In this document: one piece after another, positions 20,696 to 28,747 of the stretch | Position numbering within the stretch: the stretch's first letter is position 1 | Layout: each line of letters begins with the position of its first letter | Source: Anaerolineae bacterium | GTDB lineage: Bacteria; Chloroflexota; Anaerolineae; Anaerolineales; Villigracilaceae | DNA length: 30,647 nt | Assembly (NCBI GenBank): GCA_003694975.1 | Contig: RFJH01000308.1 | Span: 1-30,647 of the forward strand | Direction of reading: 5' to 3' | Notes under the pieces: generated by a model | Told to the model about the DNA's origin: nothing | The model's database searches: none | The model's input: the letters and a program-made list of their open reading frames with translations, nothing else | Program-made: the position numbers and the translations under genes

Positions 20696-22009
20696 ATGGT
20701 CTCTCCAATCAATCGTATTCGCGCACACGTGTCGGATGAACTCGCAGCCTTGACCGAGGTCGCGAAGACTCTTACGGCGCCGGCCGAACTGCCCGAGTTG
20801 CTCGACGCCGTGCTGAAGACCATCATCCGCGTTCTGGAGCAGGCAGATATCGGTGCCATCATGCTCTGGGACCAATCAGAGGGGGCCTTTCTGGCAGCCG
20901 CAGCCGCAGGATACAACCTGGAAATCTTGCAAGAGAGTCGTCTGCACGCCGGTGAATCAATCACCGGCAAAGTGTTCGATGAGGGACGCGCCCGCCTGTT
21001 CAACAGCGCGGAGGAGGTAGCGTTGGCCATGGAGAATCTGCGTCCCTTCAACCGACGAATCGTAGCGCGCGCCCTCGGCAGCGAGGCCCTGCCCCAGGCC
21101 TCGGTCGCCGCGCCAATCATCGCCGGGGAACAGAAATTCGGTGTGCTCGTCCTTGAAACGCTGGATTCCCACAAACAATTTCCCCCGGAGACCCTCGCCT
21201 TCGTGCAAACCCTGGCCGACCTGATCGCCCTGGCGATTGATCGCGCCCGCTCCGAAGCGCGCGCCAAGGCGGCGCGCGAGGCGCGGCAGGCCGACCGTAT
21301 GCGCGCCGAGGTCATGGCCGCCCTCTCCCACGAGTTGCGTATGCCCCTGGCGACCATCAAAGGCTATGCCACTGCCCTGCTGATGGACGAGGTGCAATGG
21401 AGCGATGAGAAGCGACGGGAGTTCCTGCGGCAAATTGAGGAAGCCTGCAACGACATGGAAGGCATGATCCAGGATATCCTGGATACCACGCTGATTGAAG
21501 TGAATCAACTTCGCCTGGAGTATCAACCCCTGCGCCTGGTACACATCGCCCGCGAGATCGCCTCGGAAGTCCGACGACGCAGCGACCGCCATCGCCCGGT
21601 GGTGGACTTCCCTTCAACCTTTCCCATCATAGAAGCCGACCCACGCTGGATACGGCAGGTCTTCCGCAACATTGTGGACAACGCCATCAAATACTCTCCG
21701 AATGGTGGTCTGATTGTCATTCGCGGGGAGGCACGCCCTGCCGACGTGGTGATCAGCGTATCCGACCAGGGCGTGGGCATTCCGCCGGAGAACCTGATCA
21801 CGCTCTTCGAGAAATACTTTCGCGTGCGCGCCACCTCCACGTTGCACGTCCCGGGCACCGGCCTGGGCCTGCCCATCGCGCGCGCCATCATTGAAGCACA
21901 TGGCGGACGCATCTGGGTGAAGAGCAAGGTCGGCGAAGGGACGACCGTCTATTTCACGTTGCCGCGTCAACGCCCGGGGAACGGGAAGGAGCAGGATGGG
22001 CAGGTCTGA
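20696..22009 (+). CDS. Soluble GAF-domain sensor histidine kinase (GAF-HisKA-HATPase_c)
   Basis: GAF (GESITGKV, APII...FGVLVL), H box SHELRMPL, N box NIVDNAIKYS, DQGVGIP, GTGLGL; no TM segment; TTG20681 is an alternative start. Confidence 0.95.
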   Translation: MVSPINRIRAHVSDELAALTEVAKTLTAPAELPELLDAVLKTIIRVLEQADIGAIMLWDQSEGAFLAAAAAGYNLEILQESRLHAGESITGKVFDEGRARLFNSAEEVALAMENLRPFNRRIVARALGSEALPQASVAAPIIAGEQKFGVLVLETLDSHKQFPPETLAFVQTLADLIALAIDRARSEARAKAAREARQADRMRAEVMAALSHELRMPLATIKGYATALLMDEVQWSDEKRREFLRQIEEACNDMEGMIQDILDTTLIEVNQLRLEYQPLRLVHIAREIASEVRRRSDRHRPVVDFPSTFPIIEADPRWIRQVFRNIVDNAIKYSPNGGLIVIRGEARPADVVISVSDQGVGIPPENLITLFEKYFRVRATSTLHVPGTGLGLPIARAIIEAHGGRIWVKSKVGEGTTVYFTLPRQRPGNGKEQDGQV

Positions 22010-22057
22010 GAGTCTCCACCTGGGGTGGGGAAAATGCCGGGGCGCGCCGCGCACGCG

Positions 22058-22078
22058 AGGGTCAACGTAGGGTCAACG
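22058..22078 (+). repeat. Perfect 10-bp direct repeat, 11-bp period (candidate OmpR-type box)
   Basis: AGGGTCAACG-T-AGGGTCAACG ending 1 nt before the response-regulator ATG. Confidence 0.7.
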
Positions 22079-22079
22079 C

Positions 22080-26041: not shown

Positions 26042-26059
26042 GGCGCGAAAAGAATATCC

Positions 26060-26110
26060 GAGGGCGGGAGGTGTTTGTCGCGCCGGCGCGTGGACAACAC
26101 CCCCGCCTTC
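26060..26110 (+). terminator. Long GC-rich hairpin after gdhA (terminator or mRNA-stabilising stem)
   Basis: GAGGGCGGG/CCCGCCTTC plus GGTGT-T-TGTC/GACA-ACACC stems; followed by pyrimidine-rich CTCTTCTATCTTT rather than a pure T run. Confidence 0.55.
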
Positions 26111-26194
26111 CTCTTCTATCTTTCGAACTACGTTAGCGCTCTTTCGCACCCTAGTGCCCGTGCGTGAAGTGCATTTATCGTGTGAGGTGCAGGC

Positions 26195-28747
26195 GTGCAA
26201 CTGGATCAGGGTATTGCAGATCAAATGCTCGAACAGGCCGTCGCGGAATGCGCGCGGATGCATTTCGCGGGGGATATCCGCCGCGCGCGGCGTGCCATCT
26301 CCCAGGGACAATGTGAACACTGCAAATGCGTCGCCGATAGCCTGGTGCGTCAAATTGCCGAGTACCTGGGACAGGTAGATAGCACTGTGCGCGCCGTCTA
26401 CCAGTACGAACCGGCCGGCGAACCCCAGCGTTCAGGCAAAACACCTGAACACACAGGCATTCACTTCGTCCTGTGGGTAGAGCGCAAATCCGCCGCCCTG
26501 CATGCCCTGGTCGAGACATTCGAGACCATGCTCGCCAGAGGACAACGCGAACTGGGCTGTGCGCAGGCGTCCCCGCAATGCTACATGCTGGATATGCTCA
26601 TGATAGATGACCGCGACGTACGTGAGCATCGCGGCCTGGGGCTGCTGGCAGACTACCGTATCCTGCGCGCGCGCCCCGTCTGGCAACGACCTGAACACCC
26701 CGAACCTCCCCCTCCTCCAAAAACAGCCGCCTCACCATCACGACCACATCCCATCCTACCCGAAACGTTCGATCCTGACCTGATCCCCGAATCCCGGCTC
26801 ATCGAGCACGCTCTGGCGATTGAGCGCATGCCCCCCGAGGACCGCGCCGAACTGGAACACCGCCTGACCGAACTCAAGGTGACGCTGATCCGCCGCATGA
26901 TCAGCGATCAACTGACCTACATCAACGTCGCCAAAAAATGGTTCAGCGTGGCCGACCTGGCCGAAATCCTGCGCAGAAGGCTGGGGTTCGGGCGCATTGG
27001 GGGAAAAGCCGCCGGTGTGCTCCTCGCCGCTCGAATCCTGGATCAGGTCGCGGACGAGCGCCTGAAAGCATGCATCCACGTCCCCGAATCGTTCTTCCTG
27101 GGATCCGATTTGATGTACATCTTCATGGCGATGAACGGCCTGATGTACTGGAACGACCAGAAGTACAAACCGGAAGACCGCATTCGGGATGAGTACCCAC
27201 AAATCCAGGAGGAGTTCGCTGCCGGGGAGTTCCCACCGGAAATCGTCGTCGAGTTGCGCGCTCTGCTGGAAGAGATCGGGCCACACCCACTGATCGTGCG
27301 CTCCTCCAGTCAGTTGGAGGACAGTTTGGGGACCTCCCTCGCCGGAAAATACAACTCCTACTTCTGCCCCAATCAGGGCACTCCCGAAGAAAACCTGAAA
27401 GCGCTCACGAGAGCCATCGCACTCACCTACGCCAGCACGTTCAGACCCGATGCGCTCCTCTACCGCCGCCAGCACGGCCTGCACGATTACGACGAGCGCA
27501 TGGCGATATTAATCCAGGTCGTCCAGGGAGAACGGTGGGGACGTTACTACCTGCCCTTCGCTGCAGGCGTGGCCTTCAGTCACAATCTCTACCGCTGGGC
27601 ACCGCAAATTCGTCGCGAGGACGGCTTCGTCCGTCTCGTCTGGGGGTTGGGGACGCGCGCCGTGGAACGCGTCGGGGACGATTACCCCCGGCTGGTCGCC
27701 CTCAGTCACCCCACCCTTCAACCCGACGACTCGCCGGAAGCCATCCGCCACTACTCGCAACAATACGTGGACGTGATTGATTTGGAGGAGAACGCCGTCA
27801 AGACGTTGCCCATTCGCGAGGTATTGACCCCCCAATACCCCCCTCTGCGCTTCATGGTCCAACTCGAACGGGACGGTTACCTCAGCACGCCGCGCAGCCG
27901 CGTGCTGGAATCCGACCTCCCCAATCTGGTCATCACCTTCGATACTCTGCTGCGAAAAACCGATTTCCCCAAGAACTTGCGGGAGATTCTTCACATCCTG
28001 GAACGCCACTTCCGATCCGCCGTGGACGTAGAGTTCACCGCTCACATTACAGACCCCACCGCCGCCCGTCCGGACGTTCAGATTTCCATCCTGCAATGCC
28101 GTTCTCTGCCCAGCCTGCAAAGCGCATATCAGGCCACACTGCCGGAGGATCTTCCCGAAGAAGACGTTATCTTTTCCTCTCGCTTCCTGGTGCCGCGCGG
28201 TTACCTGGCGAATATCCGCTACGTGATTTTCGTGCCGCCGGAAAAATACTTCGCCTTACCCAACGCGGCAAGGCGCAATCAAATAGGCCGTATCATCGCC
28301 CGCCTGAACACCTCCCTGGACGAAAAGACCTTCATCTGCATCGGCCCTGGGCGCTGGGGGACGAGAAACGTAGACCTGGGTGTGTACGTGGGGTATGCCG
28401 ATATCTGCAATGCAGGCGCGCTCGTGGAACTCTCGGGCCAGGATGTCGGCCCGACGCCAGAACCTTCCATAGGAACCCACTTCTTCCAGGACCTGTTGGA
28501 AGCCCACATCTATCCCATCGCCGTCAACCTGGACAAAGAAGAGACCATCTTCAACCGCCGCTTCTTCTACGAGACTCCGAATCGCTTGAAAGACTGGATG
28601 GAAGTGGATGGCGAACTGGCCGAAAGCCTGCGCCTGATCGAGGTCGCCGCGTTCCGCCCCGGTCATCACCTGGAAATCATCATGGACGATGAAACGGGGC
28701 AGACGGTTGCCTTCCTGAAAGCCGACAGCCCCTCCTCAACGGGCTAG
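26195..28747 (+). CDS. PEP-synthase/PPDK-like ATP-grasp protein (paralog B) with extra N-terminal Cys-rich domain
   Basis: GTG start after GAGGTG; IGGKAAG, IVRSSSQLED, LAGKYNS, MAILIQ, AGVAFS, VWGLGTRAV, VDVEFT, ILQCR; C-terminal GPGRWG...GTHFF domain; ~165-aa N-terminal extension and Pro-rich linker. Confidence 0.88.
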   Translation: MQLDQGIADQMLEQAVAECARMHFAGDIRRARRAISQGQCEHCKCVADSLVRQIAEYLGQVDSTVRAVYQYEPAGEPQRSGKTPEHTGIHFVLWVERKSAALHALVETFETMLARGQRELGCAQASPQCYMLDMLMIDDRDVREHRGLGLLADYRILRARPVWQRPEHPEPPPPPKTAASPSRPHPILPETFDPDLIPESRLIEHALAIERMPPEDRAELEHRLTELKVTLIRRMISDQLTYINVAKKWFSVADLAEILRRRLGFGRIGGKAAGVLLAARILDQVADERLKACIHVPESFFLGSDLMYIFMAMNGLMYWNDQKYKPEDRIRDEYPQIQEEFAAGEFPPEIVVELRALLEEIGPHPLIVRSSSQLEDSLGTSLAGKYNSYFCPNQGTPEENLKALTRAIALTYASTFRPDALLYRRQHGLHDYDERMAILIQVVQGERWGRYYLPFAAGVAFSHNLYRWAPQIRREDGFVRLVWGLGTRAVERVGDDYPRLVALSHPTLQPDDSPEAIRHYSQQYVDVIDLEENAVKTLPIREVLTPQYPPLRFMVQLERDGYLSTPRSRVLESDLPNLVITFDTLLRKTDFPKNLREILHILERHFRSAVDVEFTAHITDPTAARPDVQISILQCRSLPSLQSAYQATLPEDLPEEDVIFSSRFLVPRGYLANIRYVIFVPPEKYFALPNAARRNQIGRIIARLNTSLDEKTFICIGPGRWGTRNVDLGVYVGYADICNAGALVELSGQDVGPTPEPSIGTHFFQDLLEAHIYPIAVNLDKEETIFNRRFFYETPNRLKDWMEVDGELAESLRLIEVAAFRPGHHLEIIMDDETGQTVAFLKADSPSSTG

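Follow-up and report, generated by a model that had tools for sequence, protein, structure and literature searches.

Two dikinase-like paralogs flanking gdhA in an Anaerolineae locus belong to a widespread glutamate dehydrogenase-linked protein family

Introduction

Why should a gene for glutamate dehydrogenase (GDH) lie between two genes whose products look like phosphoenolpyruvate (PEP) synthase, and what could these proteins do there? The question is raised by a stretch of 30,647 nucleotides from an Anaerolineae bacterium (assembly GCA_003694975.1, contig RFJH01000308.1; hereafter the window), in which gdhA is flanked by two paralogs, here called A and B, that carry the PPDK_N ATP-grasp domain of PEP synthase and pyruvate phosphate dikinase (PPDK). 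Ammonium enters biomass by two routes, of which GDH is one; to our knowledge, the regulation of this enzyme is poorly understood in most bacteria. We describe a distinct, widespread and uncharacterised protein family, defined by PPDK_N together with a "GSHFF" domain and linked to GDH genes; A and B very probably are members of it and not PEP synthases. Full-text literature searches returned no paper on the family or on its GDH link. The source assembly is a hot-spring metagenome-assembled genome (MAG) of 363 contigs, 88.6% complete, and the sequencing runs in which the locus was found are DNA runs of a hot-spring metagenome.

Results

The locus consists of five genes, all on the forward strand, with the following features.

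20681 (TTG) or 20696 (ATG) to 22009, forward strand: sensor histidine kinase with GAF, HisKA and HATPase_c domains (Pfam)
22080-22811, forward strand: OmpR-family response regulator with REC and Trans_reg_C winged-helix domains (Pfam, NCBIfam)
22808-24550, forward strand: paralog A, 580 aa, clade A1 of the GDH-linked family (Pfam, tree)
22895-23983, forward strand: PPDK_N ATP-grasp domain of A, residues 30-392 (Pfam PF01326, 141 bits)
23999-24547, forward strand: C-terminal domain of A, about 183 aa, residues 398-580 (family alignment, structure model)
24341-24343, forward strand: codon of the invariant His512 of A
24683-26041, forward strand: gdhA, NADP-type hexameric glutamate dehydrogenase, 452 aa (NF006929, 751 bits)
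26195 (GTG) to 28747, forward strand: paralog B, 850 aa, Chloroflexota B-like subclade of the B clade (Pfam, tree)
26195-26989, forward strand: N-terminal Cys-rich domain of B, about 265 aa (ortholog alignment)
28478-28480, forward strand: codon of the invariant His762 of B

A and B are paralogous (29% identity between residues 25-579 of A and 262-844 of B, E 3e-44), and Pfam assigns PPDK_N alone to each of them, in B at residues 267-654 (PF01326, 170 bits). Neither PEP-utilizers (PF00391) nor PEP-utilizers_C (PF02896) gave a match in A or B even at E<=10, and a genome-wide search found no PF00391 protein in the assembled genome, A and B again being unmatched. The best scores against the PEP-synthase models of NCBIfam are 67 bits for A and 48 bits for B, with a cut-off of 883, and both proteins reach 29-32 bits against the rifampin phosphotransferase (RPH) equivalog, whose cut-off is 999. 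With scores so far under the cut-off, the database name "PEP synthase" is wrong for A and B. The initial annotation of this DNA had read both as stand-alone PPDK_N ATP-grasp proteins that lack the PEP/pyruvate-binding TIM barrel and are not gluconeogenic; the Pfam searches, the scores above and a structural model of A, in which no PEP-utilizers_C domain is present, bear this out, and A and B are not gluconeogenic enzymes. The single direction of the five genes and the ATGA coupling of the regulator to A stand as well, whereas the short gaps described between the genes hold only in part: A and gdhA are separated by an AT-rich spacer of 132 bp and gdhA and B by 153 bp, next to 70 bp between kinase and regulator and a 4-bp overlap of regulator and A.

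Linkage of the family to GDH genes is the strongest result of this study. In a scan of one genome per species at least 595 relatives were found, and linkage was counted in the best 80 loci, which encode A-type proteins of 40-55% identity, come nearly all from MAGs and belong to Bacteroidota, Ignavibacteriota, Acidobacteriota, Planctomycetota, Eisenbacteria, Gemmatimonadota, Spirochaetota, Desulfobacterota, Actinomycetota, Thermoplasmatota and other phyla; by their database names, the best matches are all from MAGs. A GDH gene lies within 2 kb of the family gene in 54 of these loci and within 10 kb in eight more, in at least 14 phyla including Thermoplasmatota. The remaining 18 have no GDH gene nearby, and about ten of those end at a contig edge. 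Two modules predominate: GDH2 (a GDH type of about 425 aa) followed by A and by B', a paralog of about 900 aa, in 24/80 loci, and a GdhA-type GDH immediately 5' of a protein of about 1000 aa, A2, in 20/80. Unbiased clustering of the neighbouring open reading frames (ORFs) returned just three recurrent types, namely GDH, the family paralogs and a calcineurin-like phosphoesterase of about 286 aa. The latter, a Metallophos protein, was found by tblastn in a quarter of the loci (20/80); examples beside the GDH2-A-B' module are L053:6624-7484, L046:15231-16100, L002:16705-17748 and L148:6371-7234. The family is thus tied to GDH genes across phyla, GDH subfamilies and gene orders, and the statement in the initial annotation that similar proteins occur beside gdhA in Bacteroidota and elsewhere, some of them fused to receiver domains, proved correct in the locus survey.

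A tree of 147 family members contains two deep, well-supported clades, A (A1 and A2) and B (B' and the Chloroflexota B-like proteins), and GDH-adjacent members occur in both. Natural A-B' fusions of 1480-1650 aa, with two ATP-grasps and two His domains, were found (P0123, P0125, P0237), and the C-terminal end of P0125 is a Pol-beta nucleotidyltransferase domain; the B' of another locus (L148:3314-6307) has weak or faint NTP_transf_2 and Polbeta matches, and no nucleotidyltransferase domain is detectable by Pfam in A or B of the window. The A2 form of about 1000 aa, found in other phyla, bears an N-terminal receiver-like domain (PF00072, 28-35 bits) and, between it and the ATP-grasp, a weak DUF5752 match. 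When ten A2 proteins (L087:8699-11716, L117:8723-11725, L100:8759-11749 and seven more) were aligned with the regulator of the window, none of them kept the phospho-acceptor Asp, which is T, N, M or I instead. The domain is therefore a pseudo-receiver, which would serve as an input or docking domain and not as a phosphate acceptor. Two proteins of 1524-1557 aa (P0233, P0236) have an extra N-terminal region of about 770 aa ahead of the receiver-like domain, without a Pfam match.

In addition to PPDK_N, A and B share an unassigned C-terminal domain of about 185 aa. Conservation of residues was read from an alignment of 81 family members, in which A, B, B' and B-like proteins of both deep clades are represented. 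The ATP-grasp invariants (numbering of A throughout) are G32, G33, K34, R126, S127, S128, S129, E132, D133, E375, Q389 and R391, and those of the C-terminal domain are N455, G471, R472, G474, G481, E497, S508, G510, H512 and F514, the invariant His being His512 in A and His762 in B. By sequence the family profile matches RPH, PEP synthases and HpeI (E 1e-9 to 4e-13, the lowest for RPH), and the profile alignment places R126 of A on R117 and T145 on T136 of RPH. Both RPH residues are required for phosphorylation of rifampin, and K22 is required for all RPH activity (PMC4844700); from the GGK motif we take K34 of A to correspond to K22. As judged from the alignments, A and B keep the phosphate-binding residues of the dikinase ATP-grasp.

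The AlphaFold model of full-length A (predicted local distance difference test, pLDDT, 87.4; predicted template modelling score, pTM, 0.87) consists of the ATP-grasp and the alpha/beta domain of 183 aa and nothing else, so that the 580 residues of A are ATP-grasp and His domain with no dedicated acceptor-binding domain. It aligns with RPH at Z 26.6 over residues 16-521, with the RPH ATP-grasp (5hv6_B) at Z 22.2 and with HpeI at Z 18.5; Foldseek gave E 2e-12 for the match to RPH. The C-terminal 183 residues modelled alone reached a pLDDT of 94.3, and this model was aligned structurally against 48,161 PDB chains. Six of the seven best matches are phospho-His swivel domains or their pyruvate-kinase homologue (RPH 755-867, PK 475-583, PPDK 381-512, 2fm4 and two Enzyme I entries): Z is 6.9 for the RPH His domain, 6.8 for the PEP-utilizer-like C-terminal domain of a pyruvate kinase, 6.5 for the central domain of maize PPDK (381-512), 6.4 for the isolated phosphoryl-carrier domain of PPDK and 5.7-6.2 for Enzyme I and EI-Ntr. 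The top matches (Z 6.0-6.9) span 108-121 residues, and further "swivelling beta/beta/alpha" domains rank below them. The elements follow each other as in canonical PEP-utilizers sequences, with a strand, a loop ending in G-S-His512, a helix, a strand and a final VDG strand, and His512 opens the helix in the model (DSSP helix H512-519). These matches are suggestive, without being proof, of a swivelling phospho-His fold. At E<=1e-3, 2533 cluster representatives among 1.84 billion matched a profile built from an alignment of 60 C-terminal domains; those of full length measure about 580, 700-800 and 1000 aa, with a few of 1500-1650 aa, and the AlphaFold DB clusters that match the C-terminal domain hold members of the family itself only.

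B differs from A by its N-terminal domain, which has no Pfam match and gave weak language-model leads (score 0.83) to Pol-beta nucleotidyltransferases. Among the best 120 of 308 matches it is 51-63% identical over its full length, in proteins that are nearly all of about 850 aa and, where named, come from Anaerolineales or Chloroflexi. Across 21 orthologs C19, C40, C43, C122 and C129 are invariant and C45 is kept in at least 90%, with a CxxCxC cluster; the domain is a possible metal or redox-sensing site or a partner-binding domain.

Four other Anaerolineales loci (L002, L148, L149, L150) carry a longer array, in the order GAF kinase, regulator, GDH2, A, B', GdhA and B, which the phosphoesterase accompanies in two of the four; a further locus (L001) holds its first five genes. 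In the tree, A of the window clusters with its counterparts in L001, L002 and L047, and B with the terminal B of L002. The latter (14100-16650) is split into two ORFs of 143 and 709 aa, the shorter of which is 53% identical to residues 1-115 of B; the split thus stems from a frameshift or from faulty assembly, and the short ORF does not stand for a gene of its own. Neither a second GDH nor a B' was found elsewhere in the assembled genome at its given completeness, gdhA of the window being the sole GDH found in the assembly. Lacking GDH2, B' and the phosphoesterase, the window holds a reduced form of the array typical of the order. A third family member in the source genome, a B-like protein of 771 aa, is encoded on the reverse strand of a 4.1-kb contig (L004:857-3172, contig C82), between dnaN and a gene for an Rce1-like protease.

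The regulator and A are joined by an overlap of the regulator TGA with the A ATG (ACGATGAGC). The kinase has no hydrophobic segment (maximal Kyte-Doolittle value over 19 residues 1.32) and is therefore soluble and cytoplasmic. With its HisKA and HATPase_c domains, and with the DD pair and the LIVLD acceptor Asp of the regulator, the pair is an orthodox two-component system. In L001, L002, L149 and L150 the array likewise begins with an ortholog of the kinase, and the pair accompanies the array in Anaerolineales loci only, where it probably sets the transcription of the module. The following signals were read around the genes.

22058-22079, forward strand: direct repeat AGGGTCAACG, two copies with 11-bp spacing, ending at the regulator start codon (read in the sequence)
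24551-24682, forward strand: AT-rich spacer between A and gdhA, likely promoter/operator region of gdhA
26060-26110, forward strand: probable intrinsic terminator 3' of gdhA, a GC-rich hairpin and then a U-rich tract (folding)

The repeat upstream of the regulator is a possible OmpR-type site. Related motifs lie in the spacer between A and gdhA (TTAACGC at 24559 and 24570, 11 bp apart, and TCAACGC at 24602), and T[TC]AACG(C) is enriched in the window, with 16 occurrences observed against 7.5 expected. The 11-bp T[TC]AACG repeats were not present in the matching regions of L001, L002 and L047, and such lack of conservation in orthologous loci leaves the reading as regulator sites without comparative support. 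The gdhA ORF opens at 24614, and its real start is the ATG at 24683, preceded by a ribosome-binding site, AAGGAGAG; the product carries ELFV_dehydrog_N and ELFV_dehydrog (Pfam) and scores far over the cut-off of 536 bits of the NADP-GDH equivalog NF006929. The hairpin 3' of gdhA has a free energy of -41.3 kcal/mol (z -3.83; none of 200 shuffled sequences was as stable). Given this hairpin and the lengths of the spacers, the cluster need not form a single transcript, and gdhA and B may not be co-transcribed with A. A search with Rfam found no riboswitch or leader in the region.

Of the other genes in the window, the one directly 5' of the kinase on the same strand (18428-20599) encodes a protein of 723 aa that combines a C39-like peptidase domain with a TPR repeat, and is not kept beside the array in relatives. 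A membrane receptor of the 7TMR-HD family with an intracellular HD hydrolase domain is encoded at 7877-10054. A tRNA-Sec gene (73 bits) adjoins another tRNA gene, 3' of a threonyl-tRNA-synthetase-like gene at 354-2246 (window 2463-2555, 2319-2393, 1-47), which implies the use of selenocysteine in the source Anaerolineales genome.

Discussion

We favour, at a probability of about one half, the reading that A and B form a dikinase-like histidine phosphotransfer module without an acceptor domain of its own, tied to GDH and acting on or with it. The parts of this reading differ in strength. Histidine phosphotransfer by A and B is rather probable, given the fold, the position and the invariance of the His residue; that the GDH protein itself is the acceptor or target is a tentative proposal drawn from gene context. 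In the mechanism proposed, ATP would bind to the ATP-grasp and the His domain would, like those of PPDK and RPH, take up a pyrophosphoryl or phosphoryl group, with release of AMP. Because A has no fused acceptor-binding domain, the phosphoryl group would then pass to a partner in trans, for which GdhA, in a regulatory modification, or a ligand at a complex of GDH with A and B are the best candidates. In many lineages the neighbouring calcineurin-like phosphoesterase could reverse the mark, and lineage-specific sensor modules would act as inputs. It is conceivable, if somewhat doubtful, that this amounts to a novel post-translational control of GDH in at least 14 phyla, a counterpart of the adenylylation cycle of glutamine synthetase: A and B, as ATP-driven histidine phosphocarriers, would respond to nitrogen, energy or redox signals by marking GDH or by gating its active site, with the phosphoesterase as eraser and with the GAF two-component pair here, and pseudo-receiver, Cys-rich and nucleotidyltransferase domains elsewhere, as inputs.

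Several observations weigh against this reading. We know of no dikinase that phosphorylates a protein. Phenylphosphate synthase, a split relative, acts on a small molecule. The need for two complete ATP-grasp/His proteins lacks an explanation. The assignment of the swivel domain is at the level of fold only, with Z of 6-7 lying in the range that the tool describes as a common arrangement: for the domain model Foldseek found no PDB match below E 0.02, hmmsearch of the domain profile against PDB sequences gave chance matches only (E>0.2), and hhalign against 16 PEP-utilizers domains of relatives gave probabilities below 1%, with only the terminal VDGxxG strand aligned. In the window there is no phosphoesterase gene, and the genome gave just three weak partial matches (E ~1e-4). 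The terminator-like hairpin 3' of gdhA points to separate transcripts. Chloroflexota commonly carry B-like genes on their own: 11 of 18 sampled genomes have no GDH gene within 10 kb of the family gene, and the other seven have one within about 10 kb of a family gene. HpeHI, likewise a split relative, acts on a small molecule (PMC12167813).

The main rival is a small-molecule dikinase of multiple components, similar to HpeHI, in which a metabolite tied to the GDH reaction or to nitrogen status would be phosphorylated by A and B, perhaps joined in a heteromer; acceptor binding would fall to the N-terminal domain of B or B', GDH would be a pathway neighbour and the phosphoesterase a means to recycle the product. 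The characterised relatives without a TIM barrel all use small molecules (RPH, PMC4844700; HpeHI, PMC12167813), HpeI is among the closest structures to A (Z 18.5), the extra N-terminal domains of B and B' are well conserved, and the A-B' fusions suit an enzyme of several components. We nevertheless consider it unlikely, since A with its 580 aa has no space for a substrate-binding domain, no other metabolic gene recurs among the neighbours and fusions to pseudo-receivers are more typical of signalling proteins; in addition, the link to two GDH subfamilies over rearranged gene orders indicates GDH itself and not a pathway. The same genomic linkage would also fit regulatory partners that bind ATP or AMP without phosphotransfer, sensing adenylates or other ligands as allosteric subunits or scaffolds of GDH, or, in a variant, ligases with the acyl-phosphate chemistry of ATP-grasp enzymes, in which the invariant His would be structural or otherwise catalytic. 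GDH of Thermus takes non-catalytic regulatory partners, and by sequence the C-terminal domain does not resemble phospho-His domains. Against this, the phosphate- and Mg-binding residues of the ATP-grasp are strictly invariant in both deep clades, which argues for catalysis, His512 opens a helix in an order of elements matching that of PEP-utilizers, phospho-His domains are the best fold matches and a recurrent phosphoesterase neighbour suits a phosphoryl mark; we regard such partners as improbable.

Phosphorylated A or B could, in principle, act as an unorthodox histidine kinase on the OmpR regulator, or on the fused receiver elsewhere, as the translational coupling of the regulator gene to A, the receiver-like domain of the relatives of about 1000 aa and the label "histidine kinase" in some database records might suggest. 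This is very improbable. A receiver Asp had been among the acceptors named in the initial annotation, and for the fused forms it is rejected, the residue being replaced in 10/10 aligned proteins; moreover, the commonest module, GDH2-A-B', has no receiver, the regulator of the window is already paired with its cognate GAF kinase, and the kinase/regulator pair is confined to Anaerolineales loci. The two-component pair, described there as part of the system, is instead a feature of this order. That A or B is an ordinary PEP synthase or PPDK can hardly be maintained, in spite of PPDK_N and of the names in many database records: the missing PEP-utilizers_C TIM barrel and PF00391 domain refute this identity at the level of domain content, the scores of 67 and 48 bits are far below the NCBIfam PEP-synthase cut-offs of 598-1063, and A has 580 aa where PEP synthase and PPDK have about 790-880. 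The dikinase-derived phosphotransfer module, which had been proposed from the start, thus stands with regard to the retained ATP-grasp residues and the domain with the invariant His; its swivel assignment, with no signal in sequence, stands less firmly.

A dedicated ATP-using family that travels with GDH genes in many phyla of bacteria and in some archaea implies that control at the junction of carbon and nitrogen metabolism has a layer so far unrecognised, or that a new reaction takes place there. The public names given to its members ("PEP synthase", "histidine kinase", "CheY-like protein") can mislead the metabolic reconstruction of uncultivated anaerobes, for instance by suggesting a false gluconeogenic capacity. 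If the module does pass phosphate to a partner, the principle of the swivelling-His dikinase would be extended to an acceptor in trans, possibly a protein. With one GDH, one A, one B and one two-component pair, the window holds a naturally minimal version that is attractive for reconstitution, and the hot-spring source suggests thermostable proteins.

Among known systems RPH (RPH-Lm; PDB 5hv1/5hv6/5fbs; PMC4844700) is the closest solved structure to the ATP-grasp of A. A has equivalents of R117 and T136, neither protein has a TIM barrel, and in both the His domain is C-terminal, that of RPH (755-867) being the top match of the C-terminal domain of A. In contrast to RPH, A and B have no rifampin-binding domain between ATP-grasp and His domain, their His domain is about 60 residues longer, has GSHFF instead of the TSH motif and is not recognisable by sequence, and the gene context is GDH and not antibiotic resistance. 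HpeHI (PMC12167813) and phenylphosphate synthase resemble the present case in that the dikinase functions are divided among two or more polypeptides, and they set a precedent for acceptor binding by a separate component. HpeHI, however, divides ATP-grasp and His/substrate domains between proteins, whereas A and B each carry an ATP-grasp and a His domain; the context of these enzymes is aromatic catabolism and not GDH, and A has no substrate domain. With PpsA and PPDK, A and B share PPDK_N with its conserved catalytic residues, followed in the order of PPDK by a predicted swivel-like His domain, and they differ by the lack of the PEP/pyruvate TIM barrel, of a PF00391 match and of scores anywhere near the equivalog cut-offs.

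A functional analogy may further be drawn to Enzyme I and EI-Ntr, in which a swivelling phospho-His domain passes phosphate to a separate protein and whose His domains match the C-terminal domain of A in fold (Z 5.7-6.2). The GAF domain of EI-Ntr senses nitrogen status, and a GAF sensor is also associated with the window, on the kinase. The phosphate source of A and B would be ATP through the ATP-grasp, not PEP through a TIM barrel, and they have neither the HPr-binding subdomain nor sequence homology to these proteins. Finally, the adenylylation of glutamine synthetase by GlnE and GlnD provides, by analogy only, a case of a nitrogen-assimilation enzyme with dedicated ATP-using modifiers; A and B are not homologous to GlnE, and it is in the fusion of some family members to a nucleotidyltransferase of Pol-beta type (P0125; L148 B') that the two systems resemble each other.

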